The notes under the pieces were generated by a model. The model was not told where the DNA came from, did no database searches, and was given only the letters and a program-made list of their open reading frames with translations. A stretch of DNA of 64,000 bases, taken from positions 1,929-65,928 of the IMG/VR virus record IMGVR_UViG_2883713342_000004, one strand, 5' to 3'. Shown here in pieces: positions 8,488 through 59,525 of the stretch. The DNA is from a virus (taxonomy: Duplodnaviria > Caudoviricetes). Every line of letters begins with the position of its first letter. The stretch's first letter is position 1. The translations under genes and the position numbers were made by a program.

Positions 8488-11162
8488 GGCGCACCGCCAA
8501 GCAAAAGTTGATCGAGCCCCTCCTGGGTGGCCCGGATCTGAAGCCTTCTTAAAAATGTCCAGATAACCATCTCTATATCCGGCTCCATCCCATCGCAATT
8601 GACTGTGATCATGCTGTCCCCACGCTGAACAGCCTCGGCTTTTGCATCAACGTACTTGGCCTGGGCTTCGGTCAATTTTTTCTGGGATTCGAGGGCTTCG
8701 CGCTCAAGTGAAACTTGTTCTTTGAGGATGTCCTGTAAAAACCATTTCTCTGACATGGACCCTTCAAAGCCGGCCAGGTCGGAAAACATGCTGGAACTGG
8801 CGTCCGCGATGGCCGCAACGCTTTCGCCGGCGGCTTCAAAGGCTGCTTTCATAGTCTCGGCGTTGGCCTCGACCTCGGCGATATCGAGCTTGGCCTTGAA
8901 CTCGATGGCTGTCTGAAGGGTTTCGGCTTGGGCCTTGACCTGGGCGATCTGTAGATCGGTTTCGATTTCGAGGCGTTTGACGGCGGGGATGGCCTCTTCG
9001 ATCTTTTCCTTTGCATTGTCGACCTGGGCGGTGTCGACCGGTACGACAATCGTTTCCCACTGGCCTGTCTTCTCGCTGTAATATTCCAGCGTCTGCAGTT
9101 TTTTCTCTGCATCGGCCGTGTCGATATCGACGGCCTTTTCCTCTTCGACCAGGATGCCCAGTTCCCGCATCTTCTCGGTCAACTCGGCCGTGGAATCGAC
9201 GGCGTCGTCCATGCTGTTGACCAGTGCCAGGTTATCTTCATAGGTGGTTTCTGCTGCATCCTCGGCCGCCTCGGCTCTTTCGGCCATTACCTGACTGAGC
9301 CGCTGCTCGACCTCGATGGCCTCCTGGCGGACGCGCTGGGCCTCTTCTTCTACCCCGAAGACGCCTGTGTATTTGTCGATGAATTTGAGTACGGACTGGG
9401 TGGCCGTGTCGACCTCGGGGACCAACTCGCGGTAAAGCGTACCGATCTCCCATCCAATGCCGAATGCGGCCGCCGCGCTACCAACTACCTTTAGCGCCGA
9501 TGCGAGGCCGCCGGAACCCACCAGGGATGTGGTTAATTTGGCAACGGAACCGGTAGACAAAACATTGAGCACTCCGCCCATGCCCTTGATTGCTGTGGAA
9601 ACGGTCGCAATCGGAACGGATATGGCCGTCACCGCTGCGCCGATGCCGGCAATATTCGCAGCGGTCGTTTTCGTGCCTTCATCGAGGGAGTTGAACCAGC
9701 CGATCAGATCGCCGATTCTTGCGGCAACGGCCACAAAGATCTCGCCGAGCCCTTTGCTGAAGTCGACCAAACTTTCCAGCGAATCCACCACCCGCTGGAT
9801 ACCGTCGCGCAGGCTGTCCGCATCGCCGAAATCGATGTCGTCAAACAGGCTCGTGATGAGATCTTTTATCTCTCCCAGCGAATCCAGGAAACCGGAATAG
9901 TCAACGCCCTCCAGCGCCTCGGGCAGGTTTTCTGCAATCTGTTCCAGCTTGGCTGCGATCCCATCGAGAAAATCGTTTAAGGCATCCAGGATCGGTTCGA
10001 AAGCGCCGGCGTCCACGGCATCCTCGAGGGCGTTCAAAACGGCCGTGATGCCATCGACCGCACCGGTACCGGCCGTCTGGAAGTCGTCGCCAATGGAAGA
10101 GGAAAGATTCTTGAATCCCTGCACAAGCCGGTTGACCGCCACCTCCGGGTCTTTCAACCGCTCGGCCACCTCTTTGGCGGCGGACCCGGTCGCGTTCATG
10201 GCCACGGCGGTGATCTCGGTCGATTTGCTCAGGCCGTCGAACACCTCCACCATGCGGGCGCTCTGCTCGATACCCACCAGCTGCTGGGTGACGAACAGCT
10301 TCTGCGGCTCGTCAATCGTCTGGAAAGCCCTGGCCACATCATAGAGAATATCCTTGCCGGACCGCAGCTGCCCGTTGGCGTCTTTTTGTGAAACGCCGAT
10401 GGAGGCCAGGGCCTCCTGCACCGGTTTACTGTCGTCGATAAGTTTGAGCAGGCCGGTTTTCAGGGCCACGGCCGCCTCGTCGCCGGACCGGAATACCTCG
10501 ATCACAGGGGTGACGACGCCGGCGGTCTCCTCCATGGAAAAACCCATGGTGCGGGCGATGGGAGAAATCCCGGCCATGCCCCGGCCGAGCTGTTCGATGT
10601 CGGTGGCGTAGTTGTTGGAAACCTCGTTGAGGATGTCGATCAGCCGCCGGGCATCCTCGGCCGGCGCCTTGAACCCCTTCAATGATGCGATCAGGATTTC
10701 GCTGGAGGCGGACGCTGCCAGTTCGCCGGCAATGACCAGGTCCATGCCGTCCTTGGCCAGGGTCATGGCCCCCTGGATATCGAAGCCGGCCTGTTTGTAG
10801 CTGGCCGTGGAACTGAGGACCGAGGCCGCCGACTCGCCGTATTCGTTGGACAGGCCCTTGGCACTGACCTTGGCGGTCTCCAGGGCCTGCACATTATCGC
10901 CGGCAACCTTTTTCAGTTCGGTGAAAGCGCTTTGAAGTTTGGAGGATTCGCTATAGGCATAGGCGATCCCCGCAGCGGCCATCGCCGCCAGTACCGCATC
11001 GAGTTTGACAACGGCGCTGGTCACAGCGGCGAACGGCTGGGCGATGTCGCGCACATTGCTGCCCAGACTGTCCATGTCCTGGCCCACGGCAGAAAACGTC
11101 GATCCCGTGCGATTGGTCGCCAGGATGAGCAGTTCGATTTTTTTGGTCAGGCTGTTGGCCAT
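8484..11162 (-). CDS. Tail tape measure protein (TP901-like core)
   Basis: 892 aa Ala-rich helical protein with SGDEAAVALKT-type core, downstream of the chaperones. Confidence 0.9.
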   Translation of the reverse strand: MANSLTKKIELLILATNRTGSTFSAVGQDMDSLGSNVRDIAQPFAAVTSAVVKLDAVLAAMAAAGIAYAYSESSKLQSAFTELKKVAGDNVQALETAKVSAKGLSNEYGESAASVLSSTASYKQAGFDIQGAMTLAKDGMDLVIAGELAASASSEILIASLKGFKAPAEDARRLIDILNEVSNNYATDIEQLGRGMAGISPIARTMGFSMEETAGVVTPVIEVFRSGDEAAVALKTGLLKLIDDSKPVQEALASIGVSQKDANGQLRSGKDILYDVARAFQTIDEPQKLFVTQQLVGIEQSARMVEVFDGLSKSTEITAVAMNATGSAAKEVAERLKDPEVAVNRLVQGFKNLSSSIGDDFQTAGTGAVDGITAVLNALEDAVDAGAFEPILDALNDFLDGIAAKLEQIAENLPEALEGVDYSGFLDSLGEIKDLITSLFDDIDFGDADSLRDGIQRVVDSLESLVDFSKGLGEIFVAVAARIGDLIGWFNSLDEGTKTTAANIAGIGAAVTAISVPIATVSTAIKGMGGVLNVLSTGSVAKLTTSLVGSGGLASALKVVGSAAAAFGIGWEIGTLYRELVPEVDTATQSVLKFIDKYTGVFGVEEEAQRVRQEAIEVEQRLSQVMAERAEAAEDAAETTYEDNLALVNSMDDAVDSTAELTEKMRELGILVEEEKAVDIDTADAEKKLQTLEYYSEKTGQWETIVVPVDTAQVDNAKEKIEEAIPAVKRLEIETDLQIAQVKAQAETLQTAIEFKAKLDIAEVEANAETMKAAFEAAGESVAAIADASSSMFSDLAGFEGSMSEKWFLQDILKEQVSLEREALESQKKLTEAQAKYVDAKAEAVQRGDSMITVNCDGMEPDIEMVIWTFLRRLQIRATQEGLDQLLLGGAP

Positions 11163-11262
11163 GGTTCAAGTCTTCAATTCTACCGCGCCATTTTTTTCCG
11201 GAACCGATGCCACAACATCCGCTCCGTCTCCGTCAGATACCCGTGAGGAAAAATATCGGGTA

Positions 11263-11793
11263 TCACTTCGAAGAGAAATCGGTGCCCTCCGAATCCGCCT
11301 CCGGAGCACATGGTGAGGGCGTCCTGCACCCGAGGGGTGGCCCAGAGGCGTTCGATTCCCCCAGCGGCACATGCCCCAGGGAAGTCAGCCGATTGATGGC
11401 GTTGAACAATTTAAGAAAAGAATCGATGTGAAATTCAGCCAGTCGCACCGCATCGCTCTGCTCCAGCTTTACCGATGCGCACCCGAACTGCACATAGGCG
11501 ATGGCCTTGGCAAGTGCGTCCGGAACGCTGGACCCGCCAAGACCCAAAGCCTCGAGCGCCGCCTCAATGGCCTCGGCGCCCTTGCCGTCGGCCAGCTTTT
11601 TGACCAGCCCTTCGAGATTCTTGTTGACGGCCACGCGCTGCTCGGCCCGATAAACTTCCGGGCCGGTCAGGTTCTGGACGACGATTACCGGCTTTTCGTC
11701 ATCGTCGAAAAAGGCGGCCAGGGCCGGAACCGGCACCGGTTCTGTACGCCGCTCGTATTCCGTCGTTCGGTATTTTTCGATATTAAACGGCAT
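11263..11793 (-). CDS. Tail assembly chaperone, with -1 frameshift extension to 11180
   Basis: Lies between major tail and tape measure genes; slippery GGGGGAA at 11362-11356; the -1 frame reads IERLW...FLFEVIPDIFP...TERMLW to TAG at 11180. Confidence 0.8.
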   Translation of the reverse strand: MPFNIEKYRTTEYERRTEPVPVPALAAFFDDDEKPVIVVQNLTGPEVYRAEQRVAVNKNLEGLVKKLADGKGAEAIEAALEALGLGGSSVPDALAKAIAYVQFGCASVKLEQSDAVRLAEFHIDSFLKLFNAINRLTSLGHVPLGESNASGPPLGCRTPSPCAPEADSEGTDFSSK

Positions 11794-20940: not shown

Positions 20941-21699
20941 CTAATAATTTGTGATCAACAGCTCCCTACCGGCGGTCTGCTTGGCCTTCGATACAGAATA
21001 TTTCAAAACCACCGGTCTGATTTCGAACCGGCTAAAAACCTTCCGAATTTCCGGATGGTCGTTGATGCTCAAAATGAATTTGCCGTCTATGGTTGCGAGA
21101 ACGTTGGCCATTTGCTTGTAGTCGCCGAGTTCCAAATTGTGCTCGTAATACGGCATTTTGTAATATGGCGGATCGCAATAAAACAGCACCTCCGGACGGT
21201 CATATTTGCCAACAAAAACGTCCCAGGTAAGGTGCTCGATGGTAACGCCGACCAGGCGAAGGTGAACAGCTGACAGTTCCTCCTCGAGGCGCAACAGGTT
21301 AATCCGAGGCGGATGCATGGGGCCGGCCCCAAACGTGCGGCCCTTAACCCGTCCTGCGAAGCAAAGACGCTGCGTGTAATAATAACGGGCGGCCCGCTGA
21401 ATGTCGGTCAGGCCGCCAGCAGCTTGCTGGCGCTTCCAGTCCCCGAACCATTCTCGAGACGATAAAATCCATTTAAACTGCTTTAAAAATTCTTCGAGAT
21501 GGTTCTGCAGCACCCGATAAAAAACGACCAAATCACTATCAAGATCATTGATCACTTCGTATTTCGAAAAAGGCTTTTTGAAAAACACCCAGGCCGCTCC
21601 CGCAAAGACCTCACAATAGGATTTGTGATCGGGCATCATGTCGATAATGGTTTGAGCCAATTTCGACTTACCACCAATATACGCTAATGGGCTGTTCAC
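20941..21699 (-). CDS. D12-class N6-adenine DNA methyltransferase (Dam-like)
   Basis: Close paralog of 3229-3987 with DPPY; GTG start behind AAGGAG. Confidence 0.93.
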   Translation of the reverse strand: MNSPLAYIGGKSKLAQTIIDMMPDHKSYCEVFAGAAWVFFKKPFSKYEVINDLDSDLVVFYRVLQNHLEEFLKQFKWILSSREWFGDWKRQQAAGGLTDIQRAARYYYTQRLCFAGRVKGRTFGAGPMHPPRINLLRLEEELSAVHLRLVGVTIEHLTWDVFVGKYDRPEVLFYCDPPYYKMPYYEHNLELGDYKQMANVLATIDGKFILSINDHPEIRKVFSRFEIRPVVLKYSVSKAKQTAGRELLITNY

Positions 21700-21737
21700 G
21701 GCCGTCTCCTTGTGTATTTGAATCAACGTGTGATATA

Positions 21738-21843
21738 GCCCTGATGCTTCACCCAAAGCATTGGGCCGTCTGATTTCAGATGTCTGGTTGAACCAAGGCA
21801 GCCATTCGCCCTGGGGATGTTAGCGCATCCACCAGGGCGGCCC
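21738..21843 (+). ncRNA. Putative structured antisense RNA in the methylase leader (copy 2)
   Basis: Same stems as 4029-4137 with different loops. Confidence 0.55.
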
Positions 21844-22053: not shown

Positions 22054-23172
22054 CTAATGCAACCCGCAGCCAGACAGACTGACGCCGGTTAGTTGGGATG
22101 TTGATTCTCCGAGCGTGATCTCATATCCGCTCGATGGATCATTGTTTGAGTCAACCACAAATACATAAACAGTATTGTTGGTAGAAAAACCACCTTCTCG
22201 GACTGTAGCCGTAATTGATGAGTCGGACCAACTATCAATTGTGGCAATAGCGAGTTTAGTGCAGGATGTATAAATGGCATTGTTTCCGATTTCCACCCTG
22301 GCCGCTGCGTTATCTCCCGCAGCTATATAAATATCATCGAGGACATAGTTGTAGGTCGGATATGATGTTGACGCAAAATAGCCTGGAAAATTAATCCGGT
22401 CGAAACCAACGGCCATGTCACTTTCATCAAACCAAGCTACATCATGGTTTTCGTAGAATGTATGCCCGGATGAACTCACCGCTCCAAAAAACTCTCTCGA
22501 CCCGGAATCGGTCGTTCCATTTCCTTTAAACCAAACAGACCACCTTACAGGCTCGTCCCACACCCACTGTTTGTTCGCTGCTGTGCTGCGCCCGGTGCCA
22601 GAACCCTGTCGTGGACTACCTTGGTCGTTAGAGTGAATGGTTTGCCAGTTGCCGCCACTATCAACTCCAGGCACCCACATATCCGGCTCGTTGTCCACAC
22701 TCCAACCATCTGCGGTATAAAAAAACCATGCGTGTTTAACATTGGGAACCCCGTCGAGAGCTTCTTCTGTTGACGCCCCCGGCCACCTATAACCATCAGG
22801 CACATATGCAATTGATGATATGAATATTTCTATTTGGGTTGATCCAAAAATAAATCTATTTTGGACGGCCCCTGCCAGCCCGCAATGTCGGCTGCCCATA
22901 TTGTTTGATAATGCAGGATCCGACCAGCCTTCACCGGGCCTCTGATTCCACGATCCCGTTACGGCAGCATCCGTGCTGCTAAATGTTTCATCATCTGACC
23001 CATCAGAAAAGTCGTCGAACAAGACAATTGTCGGTCCAGAGCCAAAGCTGGACCCGGATATCGTTATCTGCCGGCCGTTTTGAAACGTACCGCTTACACC
23101 CGTAATCGCAGGTGCAGCCATCGCCGAAGTGTATAAAAGACTAAAAAGAAGCGTCAGAAATATCCGTGTCAT
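22054..23172 (-). CDS. Exported beta-rich carbohydrate-binding/lyase-like protein with IPT/TIG-like ends
   Basis: Signal peptide MTRIFLTLLFSLLYTSAMA; ITISGSSFG and SWSDSSITAT motifs. Confidence 0.65.
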   Translation of the reverse strand: MTRIFLTLLFSLLYTSAMAAPAITGVSGTFQNGRQITISGSSFGSGPTIVLFDDFSDGSDDETFSSTDAAVTGSWNQRPGEGWSDPALSNNMGSRHCGLAGAVQNRFIFGSTQIEIFISSIAYVPDGYRWPGASTEEALDGVPNVKHAWFFYTADGWSVDNEPDMWVPGVDSGGNWQTIHSNDQGSPRQGSGTGRSTAANKQWVWDEPVRWSVWFKGNGTTDSGSREFFGAVSSSGHTFYENHDVAWFDESDMAVGFDRINFPGYFASTSYPTYNYVLDDIYIAAGDNAAARVEIGNNAIYTSCTKLAIATIDSWSDSSITATVREGGFSTNNTVYVFVVDSNNDPSSGYEITLGESTSQLTGVSLSGCGLH

Positions 23173-23908
23173 TTTCTATCCACCAATCTATGTGCATAGT
23201 CCCAGACCCAGCGTTAAATATTCTCACCCGAGCAAGCTGCCCTGTTTCGGTGCCGTCTATTGATTGTGTTCCTCCCGACCACGATGAGCCATCCGTTGAC
23301 CACCAGACCTGAAATTCCGCGTTTCCTCCAGTTCCCTGTTTTACTCGCAATTTCCAATAAATTGTCGCTGGTGGGGAACTGATCTCGTTATAATTAATTT
23401 GCTTGGTCCCTCCGGTAGCCGTGACTTCCCAATCCTCATCATTTTGTATGCCGAGGATACCCAGTTGATTTGATGACCCGTCATAAAGCCTGACTGTTAC
23501 TCCTGTACTGGAGTAGGATTCCGTAATACGCCACAGGAAAGCACAATATGTTTCACTTCTGGGCGTAACCGCTATTGATATATGCTCTCCCGCACCGAGT
23601 TCAATACACTCATCACCCTCCATGCTCAGCCCGGTAGTGCTGTAGTCATAATCAGGGGAACCAACTTCATCCGTCCAATCATCGTCATCTGCCTGTGTCT
23701 CAACTCCGTTTAAATGTACAAACGTTTGCCCACTCGCAACCGCCTGCCAACCACTGTCATAATAATAGCTGTCGCAGGTTTCCCACGAATCACCATCATA
23801 ATAATAGCAATCGACCTCCGTGTCCCAATCCGCCCCGTCATAATAGTAGGTGTTAGCACAAACGACCGCTGCGAATAAGAGAATGGCTAATGCGATGAGT
23901 TTTTTCAT
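23141..23908 (-). CDS. Exported adhesin-tip-like protein (YYYDGxxW x3 plus lectin-like domain)
   Basis: Signal peptide MKKLIALAILLFAAVVCA; three YYYD..W repeats. Confidence 0.65.
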   Translation of the reverse strand: MKKLIALAILLFAAVVCANTYYYDGADWDTEVDCYYYDGDSWETCDSYYYDSGWQAVASGQTFVHLNGVETQADDDDWTDEVGSPDYDYSTTGLSMEGDECIELGAGEHISIAVTPRSETYCAFLWRITESYSSTGVTVRLYDGSSNQLGILGIQNDEDWEVTATGGTKQINYNEISSPPATIYWKLRVKQGTGGNAEFQVWWSTDGSSWSGGTQSIDGTETGQLARVRIFNAGSGTMHIDWWIENDTDISDASF

Positions 23909-24201
23909 TTTCCACCGCCATTAGGTATCATTGATGGAGGCACGCTGGTTTTAGCCTTTTCCTTTTTGGTCTCGGCAATTTGCTTCAGTTCTTTCCGCAG
24001 CACCGCCGCCTTGTTGCGTCGTTCGATGGATTCTTGCTTGGTGACTTTGAGAGATAGCCGCGTAATTAGAGATTTTAGTTGAACACTCTCGTCAAGCAAC
24101 GCAGCGTGCTGAGCGGCAAGGTTCTCATACTTCAGTTGCCAGTTTTCTTCGGCCCATGCCGTGCCACAAAAAATCAGGAATACAATTAATACTCGAAACA
24201 T
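23905..24201 (-). CDS. Exported small coiled-coil protein
   Basis: Signal peptide MFRVLIVFLIFCGTAWA; heptad-like helix. Confidence 0.6.
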   Translation of the reverse strand: MFRVLIVFLIFCGTAWAEENWQLKYENLAAQHAALLDESVQLKSLITRLSLKVTKQESIERRNKAAVLRKELKQIAETKKEKAKTSVPPSMIPNGGGK

Positions 24202-26015
24202 ATGTCCCCCGTTGCCGGACTGCCGATGCCTGTCCGGTCATCTGATAGAAAAAGACGGTTTACATTGCCGTCGCCGTTGACAATGAAAGCGCCGGATGCG
24301 CCTACCGCATTACCAAGAGCAGAAAGCACATTCGCCCCAAAGTCCGTCGAGTTGGGAACCGCATTGCCGCCCTCGGTAAGCGTATCAACTTCTAAAGATG
24401 TTCCAAGGTCGTATGCTCCAGATGCCATTTGATCAGGTCCAACGCCATCGTCCTCAATCATTGCTCCATCGAGCTTATCTGACCCATTATCCCACTGATT
24501 CGCTCCAACCGTAATATGCTTGCCTGTAGCAATTTCAAGGTCTTCTTCAAGGTTCAGATCAATTTTGATTTCCATCTGAGCGTCAGATTGGTCAACCAAC
24601 CATGCGGTTGTGCGTGTGCCGCCGCTCATGTAAGTAGCCCAAATATCCGAGTCCTCGCTATCCTCGGTTGTCGTGATAAAATTGGCCCAAAAACCACCGG
24701 CCTCTTTGTCTGCGTTTTCGGAACCGGCACCGTCTGAATCGTTGAGGATCACATAAGGATCTGTGGAGGAATTCCAGATTGTGATATCATCTGGAACTTG
24801 AGCGTCAGTTACAGCGCCCTGCAAATCAGCCAAATCAAGCACACCTTCAAGGGCCGTTTCGAAACCCGCAATCGCCGCCATTGTCGCATAGTCTGCCGCA
24901 GTAACCAAAGACAAGCCGTTGGCACTCACAACATTTTCAGCCGACAACCCGGCTTCCGCCTCACTGGTCAAATAGGTGGCGTCGGTTGGCGCACCGGACC
25001 CACTTGGCCAAGAATCGTCAATGGCCTCGATCAGTTCGTTGAGCGTATCGTCGTCGGCATCGCCAAAGTTGGTATAGGAGTTTCCAGGAGTCAGATCCGT
25101 GAAGGCAGTATCACCAATGGCCGCCCCGGTCGCCATTGCCGTGACGCCGGTTTGTAAGATACTAATCGCTCCGGACACAGACACCGCCTCGATCCGGCTA
25201 TCACCAACACCATCATAAATCAAAATTTGGGAGTTGTTCATGCCGGTGATTTCTGCCGTGATGCCGTCCAGAGTTGTATCGGACCCGCCAGCGCCCTCGA
25301 CCGCTGTTTCCAGGGCTTGCAGGGCCGCTTTGATCGTCAAGTTGTCGTCTATCGTGCTGCCGTTGAACTCGCCCAGGTGGGTTGACCCTATGGCCACGCC
25401 CGAAAGAGTGACAAGATCGTCGGCCTGTAATGCGGCAACGGCAGCAGCCGCAGTGCCTGCGGCATCATACGATCCAGACAGGTCCGGAATATCACCTGCC
25501 TCAAGCCCGAATGTGACGGTGGCCCCGGAAAGATCCCAAGTGCCAGTGGGCGTCAGATCCAAACCATTTATGGTTGTCGTTAAAGTCAGCCATAAATCCC
25601 AAAGATCGTCCTGGCTAACAGCATGTGTGGTGTCCGCGTTGAAATTTCCCTCGGTAAAGGCTTCGTCCTGCACTTCTGCTGACCCTGCGGCTTGGGTATC
25701 CACACTAACCCATGCCGATCCAGACCACCGGCAGGTTACGACATCAGACCCGCCGCCCACGGTACAATCTGTTGCCCCGTCACCGTCCGTGACCTCGATC
25801 CGATCACCCGTTGTCGGAGATGTTGGCAGGGTGGCCACGGTGCATTGACCAATACGATAGGTAGTCCCTATAGCTAAATGCGTCACTCCTGCCTTGGTTT
25901 TGTACCCGGTACCGTCTTTTTCGAACGGGGACTCATCTCCCGGAGGCAAGGCCCATGCGTTGGTAACGCATATGGCCATCACGAGTAAAATTAGAGTAAA
26001 AAGTGCTTTTTTCAT
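24186..26015 (-). CDS. Exported tail-fibre-like protein
   Basis: Signal peptide ending NAWA; TVATLP...GDRIEVTD...RWSGSAW fibre/spike motif; ALQALET; C-terminal PATGDICF. Confidence 0.7.
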   Translation of the reverse strand: MKKALFTLILLVMAICVTNAWALPPGDESPFEKDGTGYKTKAGVTHLAIGTTYRIGQCTVATLPTSPTTGDRIEVTDGDGATDCTVGGGSDVVTCRWSGSAWVSVDTQAAGSAEVQDEAFTEGNFNADTTHAVSQDDLWDLWLTLTTTINGLDLTPTGTWDLSGATVTFGLEAGDIPDLSGSYDAAGTAAAAVAALQADDLVTLSGVAIGSTHLGEFNGSTIDDNLTIKAALQALETAVEGAGGSDTTLDGITAEITGMNNSQILIYDGVGDSRIEAVSVSGAISILQTGVTAMATGAAIGDTAFTDLTPGNSYTNFGDADDDTLNELIEAIDDSWPSGSGAPTDATYLTSEAEAGLSAENVVSANGLSLVTAADYATMAAIAGFETALEGVLDLADLQGAVTDAQVPDDITIWNSSTDPYVILNDSDGAGSENADKEAGGFWANFITTTEDSEDSDIWATYMSGGTRTTAWLVDQSDAQMEIKIDLNLEEDLEIATGKHITVGANQWDNGSDKLDGAMIEDDGVGPDQMASGAYDLGTSLEVDTLTEGGNAVPNSTDFGANVLSALGNAVGASGAFIVNGDGNVNRLFLSDDRTGIGSPATGDICFEY

Positions 26016-26473
26016 CTCACACTCTCCAGATAAAGGGTGAGCTGCTCACCTTCCCCGGGCGACGTCAGACCGACTGTCAGACCTCCATAAATCGACAAAT
26101 ATCCGCCGGACTCGGTGTAACTGGCCACCTTGACCAATTGGGCCGTCGTTGTGCTGCGGTCGGCGATGGTGGCACTTTCCATGGCATCGGTAAGGGTGAC
26201 GGTGTACTGTCCAGATAGCGTGCCGATAGGCACCGTCTTGAGACGATATGAGTAAAGCCCGTTGACCAGCTTCTTGTCATCTCCATTCAGGTACGAAAAC
26301 AGATCGAAGTTGGTACTCGAGGCGTCGGCCGTGAGATCTATTTTTACCAAGGCCTTGCCTTCCGCCTTGTTGTATTTGATAACGGAGGCGGCGATTTCCC
26401 ATTCGGCCATCACAGGACCGGACGGTAGTGTAAAAAAGCATAATGCGATGAGTATCAGCAGCGTTCGTTTCAT
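26012..26473 (-). CDS. Exported beta-sandwich-like protein
   Basis: Signal peptide ending PVMA; coupled to its neighbours. Confidence 0.6.
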   Translation of the reverse strand: MKRTLLILIALCFFTLPSGPVMAEWEIAASVIKYNKAEGKALVKIDLTADASSTNFDLFSYLNGDDKKLVNGLYSYRLKTVPIGTLSGQYTVTLTDAMESATIADRSTTTAQLVKVASYTESGGYLSIYGGLTVGLTSPGEGEQLTLYLESVR

Positions 26474-26841
26474 GACGGTCCTCCCTCAAGTTTATTTTGC
26501 TCGATCAATTTCCTGCTTTTTTGCATGTCGTCCAGAACACCGATCAGGGCCATGACAGCCGGGTCCGGCTTTGGGCGGCCGTTTCCGTTATGGTCAGTTT
26601 CGGTCATGTTGTTGCGAAAGGACTCGGTCGCCTGTTGATTTCCCAGCAGCAATGCGTTCGTGTGCCAGTGCAGCCGGGCGCGATACAAATCCAGACATTC
26701 CGCGACTCGAACATTCCCGCCATCTTTGGCTTTCAGATCCGCCTCCACCCATGCCGGACATCCGTCCTCTCCATTCCATGAGCGCTGCGGACAACCTTTT
26801 TTAAACTCTTTCAGTCCTCTGATGCACGGTGGTTTTCTCAT
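26470..26841 (-). CDS. Cys-rich tail-fibre-associated protein
   Basis: PPC...GCP...GCPAW...EC...ATESFRN directly after the fibre gene; start MRKPPC. Confidence 0.6.
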   Translation of the reverse strand: MRKPPCIRGLKEFKKGCPQRSWNGEDGCPAWVEADLKAKDGGNVRVAECLDLYRARLHWHTNALLLGNQQATESFRNNMTETDHNGNGRPKPDPAVMALIGVLDDMQKSRKLIEQNKLEGGPS

Positions 26842-26842
26842 C

Positions 26843-27535
26843 TTAATCCTTGGTTGCGGCAATGACTTCCTGGTAGTACGGAGGCGAAACCGAGCTAGTA
26901 GAAAACGGGTTGCTGCCTTGAGCCCCGCTGCTGATATAAGTTCTATCAAGGGTGGTCAGATCAGATGGCTTTTTCCATGCGGTTGCTCCGGATCCGGAAG
27001 CCACGGTTACCTCCTCGACAAAGGCCTCATAATTTTCCGTATCCGCTCTTATGGCTTTCAATGTTTCCGGATCGGTCGCATGGTAATCATAAATAAACAT
27101 GGTGTGCCGGTGATCATTCAAATCATGGCTGTGCCCAGCTTGCGGATTGATATCTCCTCCGCTGCCGATATCCCCTGTTGCGGCATAGCAGAGCATGGCG
27201 TTGTCCTGCCAGTCGTCTTTACGCGTCCATCCGGTCGGCGCGGTATTTTGCCCGAACGCCGCGATACAGGTGCCGGCTTCGATATCTCCGGCGATACGGG
27301 CCGCTGCCTCTGCGGCATCGCCGGCTATCCTTGCTGCGGTTTCCTCGTCGGACGCAGCCTCGAAATACTGCAGCCACCGGTCCATAACCCGGAACGCCCA
27401 ATTGAAATATTGGAACGGCGGTTTTTCCAACTTCAGCCAACCGGCCAATTTTTTGGCGCCGGATGGCTCGATAAATTTATCCGGGTCATCATCGGTGATC
27501 CACTCCAAATGCCCGGTTGTCGGTTTATCCGCCAC
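26843..27535 (-). CDS. Short tail fibre protein (no signal peptide)
   Basis: Baseplate-anchor N-terminus EPSGAKKLAGW...PPFQYFNW...DRWLQY; collar-like APTGWTR and GHSH/HRH motifs. Confidence 0.8.
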   Translation of the reverse strand: MADKPTTGHLEWITDDDPDKFIEPSGAKKLAGWLKLEKPPFQYFNWAFRVMDRWLQYFEAASDEETAARIAGDAAEAAARIAGDIEAGTCIAAFGQNTAPTGWTRKDDWQDNAMLCYAATGDIGSGGDINPQAGHSHDLNDHRHTMFIYDYHATDPETLKAIRADTENYEAFVEEVTVASGSGATAWKKPSDLTTLDRTYISSGAQGSNPFSTSSVSPPYYQEVIAATKD

Positions 27536-27550
27536 GTTTTACTCCTTTTC

Positions 27551-29557
27551 TCAATTCACTTCTGCATTTTCGATCCCATTGACTGTCGGCGTTTCCGTCC
27601 AGTTTACCGTTGGTCCGGATGCGGCCTCCTCATCATAAACGTAGGCGCCTATGGGCCAACCCTCCGTGTCCATGCTTCTCGCGTCGATAATGATCTGATC
27701 CGGATCGGTGTCGTGGAACACTGTATCCGGTCCAAAAGCAAAGTCCCAGGGAATTGGATACGACTGCCCTTGGATCGTCAGTGTTGCGATATTGCCGCTC
27801 CCGAGATCCGCGCCCTGATCTATCAAAACGGTGCTGCTGGATGTCAGCCTGAAATCTCCTGCCGCCATATTACTAAGATAGGGATTGCCTACAGTATTCG
27901 TATCTGCAACTTGGCCCTGCAAGCCATTGTTGGTGAAACTGAGATCCGACCCGGCATCGGTTGTGTTGTCGTAAAGCCGCACAAAAATGCCGGTAGTATC
28001 CGGATCATAAGCGTGATTATTCCCTTGAATTATACCAGTTCCCGCGTCATCCAAATTGTCCCGTTGGCTCATAAAACGATAATCGGTCCTATTCATTCTG
28101 GCTTCGATTATCAGATTGTTACGAATCTTCGGCCCCTGCTCAAATTGATCTGCGTTGCAAGCCCACTTAATTCCCGAGTATGAGTAAGAGGTAGAAGGAA
28201 ACCCACCCGCATATGTCCACCCAAGAGAAGCATCTTCGGTTGCGGGCCTATAGATGGTGTTGTTAAAAGCCCACATATTGACAAAATCGTCATGGCTCCC
28301 ATTTTTTACTGCCGCATAGTTGATTCCCGAAAACTGGATGGTGTCCAAAATATTGGAAAAAACATATCCATTTATCACATCGAGCCCATTTAGCTCGAAC
28401 GTCCCATCAAAAGCTTGCGAAACGTTAATACCCATCCCGCAATTTTTTACCCGGTTCCCATAAACAAAAAAGTTTGCCGGATCGTAACCAATAGAAATGC
28501 CGCCAGCGGTACCCCAATCTTTATCGTCAGCGTGGATATTGAGAACATTATTAAACCTGACAATAATTGGGCCTTCTGCCGTCAAGGCGGCATCACCTTT
28601 AATGTCTATGCCTATCCTATGATTCTGTTGATACCAAATATCGCGTACGATATTATATTCAACCAAAGCGTTGCGAACATCGTTCAAGTACATTCCCACC
28701 TGATTATAATCTGTGCTTTCCGCGTGCAGGTAGTTGAATGAGATAATTAGATCATCGACGTTATCAAGGCCCATGTGAGGCAAAACGGTGTAGGTATTAT
28801 TGGGAGCCAGCTTTCCGATGTCATATAGATTGTTACCGTTATATCGACTCCCACCAATCGTCAGGTTATCCACAAAATCGTCTTGGCTTCCGGAGTTGGA
28901 TTTTAAAACGGAAATGCCACGACCCATTAATGAGTAAAACGTACTGTTTGTGATTGTGCTCGTGTCTACGTTTCCATCATAAAGAACTCCGCTCACCGTC
29001 CGGTAAAACGTGCAATTATCGATGTCGATATTAGTAGCTTCGTTGGCGGTCGTACCGTAAATATAGATCCCCGAACGAAAAACCTTTGCGTCGCCACCGT
29101 TGGGAGAGCTGCCACCCACCGGGTCCGTGGTGGATGTCCAGGCAGTGGTCTGGCCATCGAAATCGATGTTTTTGAAAATAAGAAAATCCTCACCGGTCAC
29201 ATAGATGCAGCCACGATAATGGGATAGATCGTCGTCACTATCCAGACTCCAATAACCATCGGGCGCGGAGGCGTCGTAGGCGCTTGCATTTCCATCATAC
29301 GTTACAGGATTGCCGGACGTGCCGCTATTGGGAACCGAAAACATTTCGGTGAAAGCCCCAGTAAAAATCACCGTATCGCCAGCCAGATCGGCAAAATTCC
29401 CCGTTCCAGCTTCCACAGTAGATTTGCTGGCACGGTTGGCGTAGTCGTCGCCGGATCCGTCACCAGCACTCGATTGAGCAGCCCAAAAATTGGCCGCGAA
29501 AACTGGCTGAACGGTAACGAGATAAACAAGCAGATATATGAGATATCGTTTGATCAT
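27551..29557 (-). CDS. Exported right-handed beta-helix (pectin-lyase-like) tailspike/depolymerase-like protein
   Basis: Signal peptide ending PVFA; SGTSGNPVT, Asn ladders (NNTI, IRNNLI), GDFRLTSSS, IGAY. Confidence 0.75.
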   Translation of the reverse strand: MIKRYLIYLLVYLVTVQPVFAANFWAAQSSAGDGSGDDYANRASKSTVEAGTGNFADLAGDTVIFTGAFTEMFSVPNSGTSGNPVTYDGNASAYDASAPDGYWSLDSDDDLSHYRGCIYVTGEDFLIFKNIDFDGQTTAWTSTTDPVGGSSPNGGDAKVFRSGIYIYGTTANEATNIDIDNCTFYRTVSGVLYDGNVDTSTITNSTFYSLMGRGISVLKSNSGSQDDFVDNLTIGGSRYNGNNLYDIGKLAPNNTYTVLPHMGLDNVDDLIISFNYLHAESTDYNQVGMYLNDVRNALVEYNIVRDIWYQQNHRIGIDIKGDAALTAEGPIIVRFNNVLNIHADDKDWGTAGGISIGYDPANFFVYGNRVKNCGMGINVSQAFDGTFELNGLDVINGYVFSNILDTIQFSGINYAAVKNGSHDDFVNMWAFNNTIYRPATEDASLGWTYAGGFPSTSYSYSGIKWACNADQFEQGPKIRNNLIIEARMNRTDYRFMSQRDNLDDAGTGIIQGNNHAYDPDTTGIFVRLYDNTTDAGSDLSFTNNGLQGQVADTNTVGNPYLSNMAAGDFRLTSSSTVLIDQGADLGSGNIATLTIQGQSYPIPWDFAFGPDTVFHDTDPDQIIIDARSMDTEGWPIGAYVYDEEAASGPTVNWTETPTVNGIENAEVN

Positions 29558-30483
29558 TAGATGGGCACCTTAACGCTCACACGCGGCATCATATAGAGAA
29601 AGACATCGCCAGTTCCGCCACTACCATCAACCTGCAAAATAATGGCAACCCTGCACACGTCATCGCCGGCCGTGGTGGGTTTCACCAATGTCTGTAAGCC
29701 GCCCCCGGTCGTACCGGCATACAGGGGCTTGCCTTCATCCTGGTTGCCCGTCAGGGTCGTAAACCCATCCCGCCGCGCAAGCATACCCTCCACGCGCACC
29801 GTGATACTGTTTCCGGTTGTGGCCGTGGAAACCGCCACGCCAATCATGGGAAAGGTTTCCTTGTCCGTAGCCGTGACATCGGCGTCGAAAAGAAAGATGC
29901 GGCCGCCGTCATTCACACCATCGTTTTTGAAATAAACCTGGGGGAATCCGGAAAAACTGGCCAGATTGATATCCTCGCCGGCGGTCAGGGTGAGATAATC
30001 CACGGCCATATATTCGCCATCGGAAAGACTGCTCAGCGTGCCGGTGACGCCGGCCGCAACATACCCCTGGGCTTCGGCTTCGGTGGCGATCTGCGTGTTG
30101 GTCACATCCTCGAGCTTGCCTTCGTCATCAAGCTCCGATTCTTTCAAAATCGGCCCGTCGTCGGGATCCCATTTTCTCCACACCCCCTGGGTGGAGAAAT
30201 CGTCGGGCCGGATAATGTCAGGGCTTGATTCGGCATCTGTGCCGTCCGCATCGAAGAGGAAGACTTGATAGGTAACCGTTGTGCCGCTGATGCTCGCCCT
30301 TACTGCCACGTCTCCATCGGAGAGATTCTCGTAATTCGGAGACCCGTAGCCCGTAATGTCCAGGGCGTCCAGGGCGCCGACGCCGCCGCCGGTCAAAGAC
30401 GTTACGCCCCAAAGGTTGGCCGCCTGCCCTTGGGTCGCTACCAAAAGGATCAGCAAAGAAAAAATTGAAAGGATTTTTCTCAT
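29557..30483 (-). CDS. Exported fibre/spike adaptor-like protein
   Basis: Signal peptide ending QGQA; tailspike-N-like SLTGGG...DADGTDAESSPDIIRPDD...GVW; C-terminal cement-like TAGEDI...IGVAV...GKPLY. Confidence 0.65.
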   Translation of the reverse strand: MRKILSIFSLLILLVATQGQAANLWGVTSLTGGGVGALDALDITGYGSPNYENLSDGDVAVRASISGTTVTYQVFLFDADGTDAESSPDIIRPDDFSTQGVWRKWDPDDGPILKESELDDEGKLEDVTNTQIATEAEAQGYVAAGVTGTLSSLSDGEYMAVDYLTLTAGEDINLASFSGFPQVYFKNDGVNDGGRIFLFDADVTATDKETFPMIGVAVSTATTGNSITVRVEGMLARRDGFTTLTGNQDEGKPLYAGTTGGGLQTLVKPTTAGDDVCRVAIILQVDGSGGTGDVFLYMMPRVSVKVPI

Positions 30484-30484
30484 T

Positions 30485-31159
30485 TTAATAGTCCTTGAAA
30501 GTTATTCCGCCCGTGTCCTTGAAAGCGATGCCGCCCGTGTCCTTGAATGAAATAGCCACCCTTTCGGATGTCATCTGGATATAGGCCAATTCTCCGCCGG
30601 ATGTCGGGTCGTCCACATCGCTGAATCCGTTGACCGTCGGATCGTCCGGATCGAAGCCGAAAGCGTTGGTGGGCGAAAAAATGATCGCCAGAAAATTCAC
30701 CTCGACGCCGGCGGCCGACACCTTCTGCATAAGGTCGTAAACGAACTGGCTGATATCGCCATCGATTGGTTCGTCCGCATATAGATCGACCTGCGCCGGG
30801 TAGACCTCGACCACCCGGATGGTCTCGGCCTGGGAAATGATCCGCCAGACGCTGATGATATCTTCCAGCGTTCCCCGGCTGACCAGTTGCCCGCAACGCG
30901 CCTTGAGGAGGATGCGGTAAATGGCATCGCTCCAGCCGGCCCTGGGCGTGCCCACGATCCGGCCAATGCCGTCCAGCTGGGCGCCCTCGGAGTCGTCGAT
31001 GCTCAGGCGCCCAGTCAGCGACGCAACGGCATCCTCCACCCCCTGCACCGGTTGCCCGTAAAGCGCCTGAATCAGCGCGGCAATATTCGGGCTGTGCCGG
31101 TACTGCATCAACAGCCGGGCCTGGGCGTCGGCCGTATGCGTGGTGATTGGAACAATCAT
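30485..31159 (-). CDS. Baseplate wedge protein (DUF2612-like)
   Basis: LLMQYRHSP...GAQLDGIGRIVG...DAIYRILLKAR; after baseplate J; C-terminal FKD x3 repeat. Confidence 0.8.
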   Translation of the reverse strand: MIVPITTHTADAQARLLMQYRHSPNIAALIQALYGQPVQGVEDAVASLTGRLSIDDSEGAQLDGIGRIVGTPRAGWSDAIYRILLKARCGQLVSRGTLEDIISVWRIISQAETIRVVEVYPAQVDLYADEPIDGDISQFVYDLMQKVSAAGVEVNFLAIIFSPTNAFGFDPDDPTVNGFSDVDDPTSGGELAYIQMTSERVAISFKDTGGIAFKDTGGITFKDY

Positions 31160-49467: not shown

Positions 49468-49944
49468 CTATTCGGCCAGGCGGTTCAGCCATCCGGCCAG
49501 GAACCGCTGGTTGCCAAGTCCGTAGTAGTAATTCCCCGCCTCGATCCGCAGGGCCATGAGCAGGGCCTGCGGGTGTTTGAACGAGTTGACTGCACTAGCG
49601 GTTACCGGACCCAGAATAGAGTCGACACGCAAACCGGCGCCGAAGCGGTTGGCCGCCTTTTGAAGCAACAAAATAGTCCTTGCGACCCCGATGTTAACGC
49701 TCAAATCGAACGCCTTGGCCGCGATGCCGGAGTTTTCGATCTGATCGAATCCGGGTGTGTTCCAATAGTCGCGCCGGTAGATGTCGATGGCTTGCTTCCG
49801 GGTCAACTTCGAAATGGAAAGATGAGGATACGCTTTTTCCGAAATTCCATACTTGGTTTGGCCGCCCGGATCTTTCGAATCGTTGACGTAGCCGCCCTCA
49901 TGAGCCAGAGTTTTTTCGATGGCGATCCCAAAATTCGAAGGCAT
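49468..49944 (-). CDS. Endolysin, glycoside hydrolase family 108 with PG-binding domain
   Basis: HEGGYVND.KDPGGQTKYGIS...DSILGPVT...FLAGWLNR. Confidence 0.92.
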   Translation of the reverse strand: MPSNFGIAIEKTLAHEGGYVNDSKDPGGQTKYGISEKAYPHLSISKLTRKQAIDIYRRDYWNTPGFDQIENSGIAAKAFDLSVNIGVARTILLLQKAANRFGAGLRVDSILGPVTASAVNSFKHPQALLMALRIEAGNYYYGLGNQRFLAGWLNRLAE

Positions 49945-57386: not shown

Positions 57387-59525
57387 TCACATCGCATCCG
57401 CGATAACCGCTTCTTTCTTGCGAACCTCTTCCCAATAATCGTTCTTCTCAAGGCTGCGATACGCCGGTGTCTGCTCGAAATACCGCATAAACGCCATCCA
57501 CTGCTTCGGGATCATCACCCCCCGGGCGTCAAGGCGCACCAGCTGCTCGTACCGGTCCGGTTCGTCCATTCGATCCAGGTCGGCGAAAACGTTCACCGGC
57601 TCTTTTTCCTGGGATTCGAAATACTCGGCCGCTTCCTGCTCGATGCGTTTCTCTTCTGCGGCGGTGAGCTGTTTGGGCGCGGTTTCCCGGTCGATCTTCA
57701 GGGGGCCGGTGGGCGTCACGCCTTCGCGCAGCAGCTGCTGACGGTGGGCCGGCAGCACCTCTTTCTCCAGCAGCATCTTCGATAGTCCGCTGGCCAGCTT
57801 GTACTGGTGATTCTTGATAGCGATCTGCTGCTCAAGCTGGGCCACATCCTCGGCGGTGCCCAATTGCTTGGCCGCCGGGTGGGTTTTCTCCTGTTCGTAG
57901 GCGATACAGATAAATTCTCCGTCTTCGTATACGGCGATATAGCTCGGGTCCTGGAGATCGTAGCGGATCTCCACCTTGTGGTGGCGTCCGTACAGATCGT
58001 TGTGGTAGTAAAAGCGGCCCATATGGGAGATGCGGCTGGCCCGGATTAGGGCGTCTTTCCGGGCCCACATCAGGGCGGTCAACGCCATCGGGTCGACGCC
58101 TTCACCGCGACCGGGCTCGAACAGGTCAACGGGTGCCCATCCCTTCAGGTATTTGCTGCGTTCCTGCGGCCGCCGGGCGTATTCGTCCATCCAGTTCGCC
58201 ACCATGCAATGGGCCATTTCAATGGTCATGCATTTGCCATCCATGATTTTTTCGTAAACCTTGCGATGGAGTTTTTCTCCGCGCATCATTCGCGGCGGCT
58301 TGGTGGCAATGGAGGTCCCGCTATAGGTGTCCGAGTGCCGCTCCATCTCGGCCATCGTGCCGAAAAAGCGCTCGACCGTTTTAGACTGCCCGTGGTAGGC
58401 CCAGGCGAAAATGGTCTGGATTCCAAGATCGCTGTAAATACCGGACAACCCGGCCTGTTCGAGGTCGGTCTCCAGGGCAGTCCCTTTGAAATATTTGGCC
58501 TTGAATGCCTTTCCGTTGTCCAGGTAGACCACGCGCGGGATCTTGCCCAGCATCAGGATCGCCCGGCGCAGGGCCGTGGAGATGGCTGCGGTGTTTTCGG
58601 AAGGGGCGATCTCCCATCCACAGGGCATATTCGAACGCATGTCGAAAAACGTGATCAGCTGCATCCGGGTCGGCTTGCCGGTCCACGGATTGAGAATTTC
58701 GAAATTCAGCTTGTGCCCGTCTGCAACCAGGACATCGCCCACGTTAATCAGTTCCGGGTTGCGCTCGATGGAATAGCAGCAGTTGTCGTTCCAGTATTTT
58801 TTACCGTGCCGCTGGAAGCACCAGATGTCGTAATTGTGGGTCCTGAATTTCTCGATCCATCGCCGGTAGGTATTCGGGCTGTGCCCGTTGTCGATCCCCA
58901 GGCCGGCCATGCGCTTCTTGGCCTCCCGGATCACCTCGGCGATGAGGAGTTTATTGGGATGCAGCGCCACCTGGAGGATGATCGTGGCCTGCTGCGCGGT
59001 GATGAGGGTCTTTCCTTTATGGGCCTTGCCACGCTTATCCGCCAGGTTCCCGCCGGATCGCACGGCCCGTTTCCATCCTTCTATGGTTTTCCAGGATACC
59101 GGCCCGACGATCTCGTAAATTTGCTGAAAGATGAGACCGCCGTTGTACGCCAGCATGAAGTTTTCACGGGCCGTGGCCTTGTTGCCGTGTCCGGCGGCGG
59201 CCAGGGTGCGGTTGTACTGCAGCAGCAGGTCGGTCTTTGCGCTGAAGATTTCCTTTTGCTTCTCGGTCATGGCCGGCACCGGTGTTTTCTCCGGCGCAAC
59301 GGCGGGAAGGCGGCTGCCGGATGTCTCCGGCAGGTTGCAGACGCGCTCCTTATTATATAAGAGGCGGATATCCTCTGGGAGATTGTCTACCCGGTAATGT
59401 TTTGCCGGTCCACCTCGCCCCGAAACGAGATCATATCGCCACTTCTCGTTCTGAGCCCGTTTATTGACAGCCCTGACGGTGACGCAAAGCAATCCGGATA
59501 TCTCTTTTGCCGTGATCGCCTGCAT
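57387..59525 (-). CDS. MuA-like DDE transposase (full length)
   Basis: N-terminal HTH, VADGH / YLDNGK / KTVERFF triad, C-terminal IRYDLQD domain. Confidence 0.95.
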   Translation of the reverse strand: MQAITAKEISGLLCVTVRAVNKRAQNEKWRYDLVSGRGGPAKHYRVDNLPEDIRLLYNKERVCNLPETSGSRLPAVAPEKTPVPAMTEKQKEIFSAKTDLLLQYNRTLAAAGHGNKATARENFMLAYNGGLIFQQIYEIVGPVSWKTIEGWKRAVRSGGNLADKRGKAHKGKTLITAQQATIILQVALHPNKLLIAEVIREAKKRMAGLGIDNGHSPNTYRRWIEKFRTHNYDIWCFQRHGKKYWNDNCCYSIERNPELINVGDVLVADGHKLNFEILNPWTGKPTRMQLITFFDMRSNMPCGWEIAPSENTAAISTALRRAILMLGKIPRVVYLDNGKAFKAKYFKGTALETDLEQAGLSGIYSDLGIQTIFAWAYHGQSKTVERFFGTMAEMERHSDTYSGTSIATKPPRMMRGEKLHRKVYEKIMDGKCMTIEMAHCMVANWMDEYARRPQERSKYLKGWAPVDLFEPGRGEGVDPMALTALMWARKDALIRASRISHMGRFYYHNDLYGRHHKVEIRYDLQDPSYIAVYEDGEFICIAYEQEKTHPAAKQLGTAEDVAQLEQQIAIKNHQYKLASGLSKMLLEKEVLPAHRQQLLREGVTPTGPLKIDRETAPKQLTAAEEKRIEQEAAEYFESQEKEPVNVFADLDRMDEPDRYEQLVRLDARGVMIPKQWMAFMRYFEQTPAYRSLEKNDYWEEVRKKEAVIADAM

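Follow-up and report, generated by a model that had tools for sequence, protein, structure and literature searches.

The general view of tailed phages is that their fibres and tailspikes fold and assemble within the cytoplasm, and virion-bound tailspikes, which fold there, have no leader and carry an N-terminal particle-binding domain. Exported proteins encoded beside tail genes are known as morons, such as lom and bor of lambda, llp of T5 and cor of phi80 and N15, all of them accessory to the virion, and AlgL and other periplasmic polysaccharide-cutting enzymes are encoded in exopolysaccharide (EPS) operons. Here we describe a locus of nine minus-strand open reading frames (ORFs) at positions 22054-30483 of a 64,000-nucleotide (nt) stretch of DNA (positions 1,929 to 65,928 of the IMG/VR record IMGVR_UViG_2883713342_000004), which we refer to as the window and which, from PHROG matches, contains a Mu-like transposable myovirus prophage on its minus strand. 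Seven of the nine ORFs encode proteins with leaders for the general secretory (Sec) pathway, and we tentatively read these seven as an accessory, late-expressed and exported kit directed against the host surface polysaccharide, not as an obligatory part of the particle.

Described systems resemble this locus in part. In the available text of its report, WceF of Pantoea stewartii (PDB 6tgf) is a tailspike-like protein of the stewartan cluster, exported by twin-arginine translocation (Tat), that cleaves stewartan (PMC7949094). Its neck domain (residues 167-232) matches the N-domain of the protein of 308 amino acids (aa) encoded in the window (Z 6.9), and the host paralogue of the 668-aa protein likewise lies in a polysaccharide cluster; the differences are that WceF has a Tat signal and unites head, neck and helix on one chain, whereas here the leaders are of Sec type, neck and helix are on separate proteins, and the genes belong to a phage late operon. 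Sequence searches of solved structures gave no match to WceF. The MAT fibres of Bdellovibrio bacteriovorus are described, in the text available, as having a signal peptide and then a conserved N-domain of about 130 aa (PMC10769870). Signal peptide, beta-rich N-domain and a mosaic trimeric fibre with swappable tips are also the design of the 609-aa family, as compared by description only, but the MAT genes are chromosomal genes of a predator that displays the fibres on its own surface. Signal peptides are reported on some genes of Porphyromonas phages, and tail parts are not named among them in the portion of that work available. Phage tailspike depolymerases (gp49 of Acinetobacter phage Fri1, 6c72; TSP2 of CBA120, 6w4q; Klebsiella Depo32, 7vz3) share with the locus the neck fold (308-aa protein), the beta-helix (668-aa protein) and the position downstream of the baseplate genes; unlike virion tailspikes, the 668-aa protein has a mature N-terminus too short for a separate domain. 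The morons named above are single small outer-membrane proteins or lipoproteins, mostly with their own expression, whereas seven packed genes, including fibre- or enzyme-like proteins of 600 aa, are found here. With the AlgL type the likeness is that of leader-bearing lyases and hydrolases in polysaccharide loci, as seen for the host paralogues of the 372-aa and 668-aa proteins.

Leaders were called by a heuristic rule of our own, not by SignalP, which asks for a lysine or arginine ahead of at least nine uncharged residues with a mean hydropathy of at least 2.2. The ORFs of 308, 668, 153, 609, 98, 255 and 372 aa each have an early lysine or arginine and then an uncharged hydrophobic core, with best 10-residue Kyte-Doolittle means of 2.5-3.5, and small residues occupy positions -3 and -1 of a cleavage site 15-30 residues from the start in all seven (GQA, VFA, VMA, AWA, AWA, VCA and AMA). 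Seven of nine ORFs in the locus are thus flagged, as compared with 2 among the 74 greedy ORF calls made in the rest of the window (Fisher p = 3e-7), and both of the latter are doubtful, one being a probable wrong-strand ORF and the other the N-terminus of a transposase with a net charge of 0. The same rule saw no leader in the 230-aa fibre or in its Cys-rich partner. These results bear out the initial annotation, made from the sequence alone, in its description of nine ORFs at these positions, of Sec-type leaders on all but the fibre and its partner, and of overlapping or abutting genes interleaved with the true fibre gene: gaps range from -32 to +15 nt when the partner's start is taken as 26841. 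Tat export was considered and rejected, as the RR pair is absent from all seven N-termini. An alternative start codon exists at or before codon 23 in four of the seven leader-bearing ORFs, and the start codon abuts or overlaps the upstream gene in five; downstream starts are disfavoured because they would cut the leader and lose the coupling to the upstream gene, so that the suggestion of true starts lying beyond the leaders was not upheld.

The leaders are retained across diverged relatives. Of the 30 relatives in the 308 family 24 are flagged, and four of the six unflagged ones start right at a conserved LTGG..ALD motif. In the 372 family a leader is present in 137 of the best 150 of 2651 cluster representatives (E<=1e-3), and the start of the TIG domain, AAPxIxxVSGT, comes after each leader. 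Eight of nine relatives of the 609 family in alignment A1 have a leader followed by a common start of the PPDGTGGW type (in the wider search for this family, the count of 24 flagged among 76 includes one false flag, P0005, at position 23), and all four relatives found for the 668-aa protein, namely two viral relatives, P0258 and the host paralogue, carry one. Leaderless relatives, where they occur, can begin at the predicted mature N-terminus, as do P0093 and a 428-aa protein of viral locus L068 (M-AITDVTGT, compared with AP-AITGVSGT in the window). The N-domain of the 609-aa protein (TVATLP...DCT...V.C.W.GS.W) provides a further indication: both cysteines are present in eight of nine leader-bearing copies and in none of six leaderless ones, which either form the C-terminal tip of an ordinary fibre (L007, L008) or are small proteins, in some cases adjoining capsid genes. 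A Cys pair seen only together with a leader is as predicted for folding in an oxidising compartment. A similar argument for the 308 family was dropped, since cysteine occurs in leaderless members as well. The host genome, a single 7.3-Mb contig, has five Omp85 matches, from which we take the host to be diderm, with an outer membrane. Because leaders are kept across diverged relatives and the Cys pair tracks the leader, the seven products are very probably exported via Sec, and the export proposed in the initial annotation is supported by the survey of relatives and by the outer membrane of the host. In two 308 relatives (P0089, and L039 at 10001-11335) a lipoprotein-type box (LSGC, STSC) replaces the signal peptidase I site, and some members of this family may be lipid-anchored.

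The baseplate gene order of W, J, gpI and fibre is of the P2/Mu type, and PHROG matches in the prophage cover W, J and the gpI-like wedge as well as the baseplate hub, sheath, tape measure, major head protein, terminase and a Gam-like protein. The nine ORFs sit between gpI and the terminal Dam methylase gene (Table 1). Relatives of this prophage were sought among 201 genomes of the order, and one besides the window's own (G002), of the same family and another genus, holds a related Mu-like prophage, with identities of 57% for the hub, 68% for J, 61% for gpI and 75% for the methylase. The order there is J, gpI (209 aa), fibre (269 aa) and methylase, with none of the seven leader-bearing genes. 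The 230-aa fibre of the window shows 65% identity to the G002 fibre across the first 65 residues, and because of this N-terminal match we regard it as belonging to the phage backbone, or chassis. Relative to G002 two blocks are inserted, one of the 308- and 668-aa genes between gpI and the fibre, the other running from the 153-aa to the 372-aa gene between the fibre's partner and the methylase. Since the G002 prophage with the same baseplate has none of them, the seven leader-bearing genes are, as judged by genome comparison, accessory to the chassis. GC content at third codon positions (GC3) is 0.76-0.81 in the core tail genes and 0.45-0.67 in the inserted genes (0.45-0.50 for the 668-, 98-, 255- and 372-aa genes), and the host flanks have a GC content of about 0.40. 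The prophage core (20900-61500) has a GC content of about 0.60 and a GC3 near 0.8, compared with about 0.40 in the host, an unusually wide gap for a resident prophage.

Two of the seven proteins have paralogues of identical architecture in the host genome, both with a leader. That of the 372-aa protein (392 aa, 61% identity over 365 residues) closes a locus that contains Wzx, Wzy_C, two glycosyltransferase family 2 (GT2) and two GT1/GT4 genes. That of the 668-aa protein (643 aa, 39% identity over residues 49-646) adjoins Wzy_C, three GT2 genes, a sulfotransferase, a GT4 gene and a dehydratase. These two loci are situated around G000:C1:402-422 kb and 5,452-5,475 kb. Neither phage protein has a domain that its host paralogue lacks, and because the alignment of the 668-aa pair starts at residue 49, too little mature N-terminus is left for a separate domain. 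No paralogue of the 308-, 609-, 255- or 153-aa protein was found in this genome. The locus with the 372-aa paralogue (G000:C1:415836-428994, L057/L058) is interrupted and followed by several insertion-sequence copies, among them two transposase-like ORFs of 338 aa and three identical ORFs of 108 aa.

The 668-aa protein passes marginally as a right-handed beta-helix (Beta_helix PF13229, E 7e-6, 26.1 bits against a cut-off of 25.9; its host paralogue reaches 21.3 bits, below the cut-off) and is a candidate polysaccharide depolymerase or modifying enzyme. The AlphaFold2 (AF2) model of the 372-aa protein (pLDDT 90.5) consists of a TIG domain, a concanavalin-like jelly roll of the lyase or lectin type and a second TIG domain. 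Its top Foldseek match is alginate lyase 6kcw (E 1.5e-6, TM 0.40/0.57), followed by glucuronan lyase 2zzj and PL14 5gmt, with 3gne also among the matches, and the fold is that of beta-jelly-roll polysaccharide lyases (PL14, PL20, PL36 type); legume lectins score nearly as well and identity to the solved lyases is 10-14%, and on the model a lyase and a lectin appear equally possible. Sequence searches of solved structures gave no match for either protein at E<=1, and neither these two nor the 308-aa protein has a homologue in 50,697 deposited phage records.

The 308-aa protein is modelled with confidence by AF2 for residues 22-110 only, the remaining body being poorly modelled. Comparison of this N-domain by VIA-align places 13 phage tailspike or fibre depolymerases and WceF in the best 14 rows, from 6c72 at Z 8.7 down to Z 5.3, and as modelled the domain matches the tailspike neck fold and not particle-binding head domains. 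Fold comparison, which the initial annotation had proposed for the mature domains, thus links the 308-aa protein to tailspikes and the 372-aa protein to jelly-roll lyases and lectins; of the tailspike N-terminal-like segment it had named, the likeness to tailspikes survives in the form of the neck. Against BFVD the model gave no match at E<=0.001, and several alignments of about 90 residues with tailspike-like proteins are to be taken as leads only. The C-terminus of the protein resembles Phage_cement_2 at E 0.02 and 15.7 bits, below the 24-bit cut-off. The N-domain also occurs inside longer leaderless fibre-like proteins (L040, 9053-10600, from residue 317; L044, 9806-10897, from residue 74), and is therefore a movable module that is not restricted to N-termini.

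The 609-aa protein is a mosaic of the leader, a PPGD start, the TVATLP domain with its Cys pair and then fibre segments. Its match in deposited phage genomes is confined to residues 205-252, where a 40-aa fibre motif matches annotated fibre or decoration genes in seven phage records, and residues 189-413 are 81% identical to part of a leader-bearing protein of 954 aa from viral contig L002. When solved structures were searched by sequence, the 609- and 308-aa proteins gave only chance-level matches (best E 0.013 and 0.15). The virion-type motifs noted initially are accordingly retained for the 40-aa fibre motif and, barely, for the beta-helix, and not for the cement-like segment. Outside the leader-bearing proteins the 609 N-domain is found as a C-terminal tip or a small protein, and in three contigs a leaderless protein of 74 aa, made up almost wholly of the TVATLP domain, lies directly after a capsid-like gene of about 350 aa (L012, 3814-4038; L013, 917-1141; L016, 5022-5246); these may be small decoration proteins.

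The reading that we tentatively prefer, an exported accessory kit against surface polysaccharide, is based on three points, namely a relative without the kit, host paralogues whose architecture is identical, and WceF as a precedent. Under it, a seven-gene cassette would have been inserted in two blocks on either side of the chassis's cytoplasmic fibre, within the late tail operon, and its genes would be expressed together with the tail genes. The products would cross the inner membrane unfolded via Sec, have their leaders removed by signal peptidase I and then fold within the periplasm, with a disulfide probable at least in the 609-aa N-domain. The 668-aa beta-helix and the 372-aa jelly roll would be phage copies of a type of protein from host polysaccharide loci and most likely cut or modify that polymer, and the 255-aa jelly roll and the fibre-like 308- and 609-aa proteins would most likely bind it. 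They would act, free or loosely attached, within the envelope and then in the surroundings of the lysed cell, clearing or masking polysaccharide and so helping release and the next adsorption. The enzymatic activity, the late timing and the lack of stable virion binding in this scheme are our inference. The alternative named in the initial annotation, in which the set would be a secreted adhesin or EPS modifier expressed along with the virion, corresponds to this reading and fits the results better than loading onto particles does. If the proteins are free exported factors, phages carry a secreted anti-polysaccharide kit that annotation pipelines label as tail fibres.

Several observations weigh against this reading. 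Runs of leader-bearing ORFs occupy the receptor-binding slot, from the tail tip to the lysis genes, in many viral contigs, a placement that suggests a role in host recognition. The leaders were recognised by a heuristic in place of a trained predictor, the kit-less relative is a single case among 201 genomes and possibly defective, and the host paralogues might descend from phage genes. The 308 N-domain starts leaderless proteins in the same fibre slot in L037, L041 and L042, the fibre motif and mosaic segments of the 609-aa protein are common to real leaderless virion fibres, and its TVATLP domain forms the C-terminal tips of the L007 and L008 fibres. The leaderless 428-aa member of the 372 family (L068, 7998-9284, plus strand) starts at the TIG domain just after a 409-aa capsid-like gene and lies within a structural module. 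The tail of gpI, described below, looks like a docking peptide in its sequence, and it is hard to see how a phage would profit from a free fibre.

The layout in other viral contigs deserves closer description in this context. Relatives were found in 14 viral contigs for the 609 N-domain, 23 for the 308 N-domain and 18 for the 372-aa protein. Of these loci, 14 of the 308 family and 11 of the 372 family were examined. A run of at least three flagged ORFs just after J-like or other tail genes was present in 9 of the 14 loci of the 308 family, often preceding lysis genes and sometimes following a leaderless fibre-like protein. Leader-bearing runs also occur in L002, L003, L004 and L017, and the 609 and 308 types are found together, as in the window, in L026, L029 and L030. 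As L027/L028 and L029/L030 are near-duplicates, these loci are not independent. Here and in dozens of uncultured viral contigs, the receptor-binding slot is filled by runs of fibre-like or glycan-active proteins with export signals.

This placement is among the arguments for loading after lysis, the explanation first given in the initial annotation, in which some or all of the exported proteins, most plausibly those of 308 and 609 aa, would acquire their mature form in the periplasm and attach to finished particles once lysis has brought the compartments together, with the tail of gpI as a landing site for trimers. Over residues 1-196 gpI is 61% identical to its 209-aa G002 homologue, which ends there, and the last 28 residues (30488-30571) are extra, reading TSERVAIS-FKDTGGIA-FKDTGGIT-FKDY, a threefold FKD(TGG) repeat for which the DNA consists of near-exact tandem repeats of 24 nt. 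The tail begins exactly at the insertion boundary, has a GC3 of 0.64 as against 0.78 in the gene body, and is followed by the 308-aa gene 1 nt past the stop codon; because it is absent from the relative, sits at the boundary and is lower in GC3, we conclude that it arrived along with the inserted DNA. A monomer bearing three such peptides in tandem could engage a trimer. Loading is further favoured by the modules that the 308 and 609 families share with leaderless fibres of the fibre slot, by the Cys pair as a reason for folding in the periplasm, and by the triple repeats that follow the leader both in the 255-aa protein and in the protein at the corresponding position in L002. We nonetheless consider it unlikely, as the chassis keeps its own leaderless fibre and the relative lacks the kit, the 668- and 372-aa proteins have no added virion-binding domain compared with their host paralogues, the 308 N-domain matches tailspike necks and not particle-binding heads and is internal in L040, and the gpI-tail motif was found neither in other viral contigs, searched with a degenerate DNA pattern, nor in loci L002-L067. 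The initial proposal of export followed by loading therefore stands in its first half; in its second, the kit-less relative, the architecture of the paralogues and the phage's own fibre are against it and the gpI tail is for it. A more specific version is less probable again: the 308- and 609-aa proteins, perhaps with the enzymes, would leave the cytoplasm via Sec, undergo oxidation and trimerisation in the periplasm, and attach to finished particles only at lysis, through the FKDTGG repeats of gpI and the YYYD repeats of the 255-aa protein, one peptide per trimer subunit, constituting a portable host-range module widespread in uncultured phages. We know of no tailed phage that assembles by post-lysis loading of exported fibres, and a full-text search of the literature, with supplementary SignalP tables outside its reach, returned no description of Sec-exported tailed-phage fibres. 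If the kit does join the particle after lysis, this would be an assembly route so far undescribed in tailed phages.

Lysogenic conversion is quite improbable. In transposable and lambdoid phages the accessory genes are usually found towards the end of the prophage, which is also where the kit lies, next to the methylase; as morons expressed by the resident prophage, the kit genes might trim or remodel the polysaccharide of the lysogen, leading to superinfection exclusion or a change in biofilm. The host-like composition of the 668-, 98-, 255- and 372-aa genes and the host paralogues in polysaccharide loci are consistent with this, and, in the available text of a published survey (PMC13507307), 3261 of 64,678 prophage carbohydrate-active enzymes (5%) carry signal peptides, tail genes being excluded. 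Against it, the genes overlap or abut from the baseplate onward, two of them lie between gpI and the fibre within the late operon, and similar runs adjoin lysis genes in viral contigs. Promoter-like sites in the locus, for which sigma-70-type patterns only were used, are at chance (13, compared with 12.8 +/- 3.3 in shuffled controls), as are terminator-like sites (11, compared with 12.4 +/- 4.0), so that expression from their own promoters as ordinary morons, raised as a possibility at the outset, was not borne out. That the N-termini are not cleaved export signals at all, representing mis-called starts or inner-membrane anchors for assembly or lysis, is very unlikely, since the heuristic calling of the leaders, the weak spanin-like match of the 98-aa protein (E 0.02) and the lipoprotein-type boxes of P0089 and L039 are opposed by the coupled starts of five genes, the small residues at -3 and -1 in all seven, the leaderless relatives that begin at the predicted mature N-terminus (P0093, the 428-aa protein of L068) and the Cys pair that tracks the leader. 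With a complete genome of a diderm host, a normal fibre as internal control, a kit-less relative and host paralogues that point to the likely substrate, the locus offers a good test case for the exported kit and its competitors.

Table 1. Features of the prophage in and around the leader-rich locus (positions in the window).
Feature	Position	Strand	Evidence or remarks
Dam-type N6-adenine methylase, prophage end	20941-21756	-	MethyltransfD12 1.4e-26
65-aa ORF, one hydrophobic segment	21852-22049	-	4 nt after the 372-aa gene, before the methylase
372-aa leader-bearing protein	22054-23172	-	Leader; TIG / jelly roll / TIG
255-aa leader-bearing protein	23141-23908	-	Leader; three YYYD repeats; LamG-like jelly roll
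98-aa leader- or anchor-bearing protein	23905-24201	-	Leader; apparent coiled-coil from sequence
609-aa leader-bearing mosaic fibre-like protein	24186-26015	-	Leader; phrog_30158 7e-10
153-aa leader-bearing small beta protein	26012-26473	-	Leader
Leaderless four-Cys partner, 123 aa	26470-26841	-	ORF 26470-26949 opens at TTG 26949; likely start ATG 26841
230-aa leaderless tail fibre	26843-27535	-	N-terminus matches the fibre of the related prophage
668-aa leader-bearing protein	27551-29557	-	Leader; right-handed beta-helix
308-aa leader-bearing protein	29557-30483	-	Leader; tailspike neck-type beta domain
gpI-like wedge protein, Mu gp48-like, 224 aa	30485-31159	-	phrog_587 4e-25 and baseplate phrogs
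Endolysin	49468-49944	-	PHROG match
MuA-type transposase	57387-59525	-	PHROG match

Of the remaining proteins of the locus, the 230-aa fibre matches tail-fibre phrogs weakly (E ~0.01) and has no hydrophobic N-terminus; the ATG of its partner lies 1 nt past the fibre stop codon, no Pfam or PHROG family was matched by the partner, and this protein, which has four cysteines, is possibly a fibre assembly factor. The 98-aa protein was considered as a phage spanin and rejected, its Rz-like match reaching only E 0.02 and the endolysin lying about 25 kb away. The Atlas clusters closest to the 153-aa protein hold viral proteins of 151-172 aa that belong to no family. In L002, L023-L026 and L035 fibre-like genes are preceded by leader-bearing ORFs of 135-179 aa, and no sequence match between these ORFs and the 153-aa protein was detected. 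More generally, BLASTP at 1e-4 found no match between the 153-, 98- and 255-aa proteins and similarly placed leader-bearing ORFs of other loci, and because of this the layout common to the window and L002 is to be understood as positional only.

In the 255-aa protein the three YYYD repeats that follow the leader contain cysteine and are succeeded by the jelly-roll domain, whose structural matches in the Atlas (TM 0.57-0.64) are jelly rolls of the LamG type and carbohydrate-binding modules. No sequence similarity was detected between this protein and its positional counterpart in L002 (12334-12996, plus strand). The two proteins hold the same relative position, and both have a triple tandem repeat right after the leader, of the form YYYD(G/S) in the former and (V/T)DT(F/W/R)EGQ in the latter.

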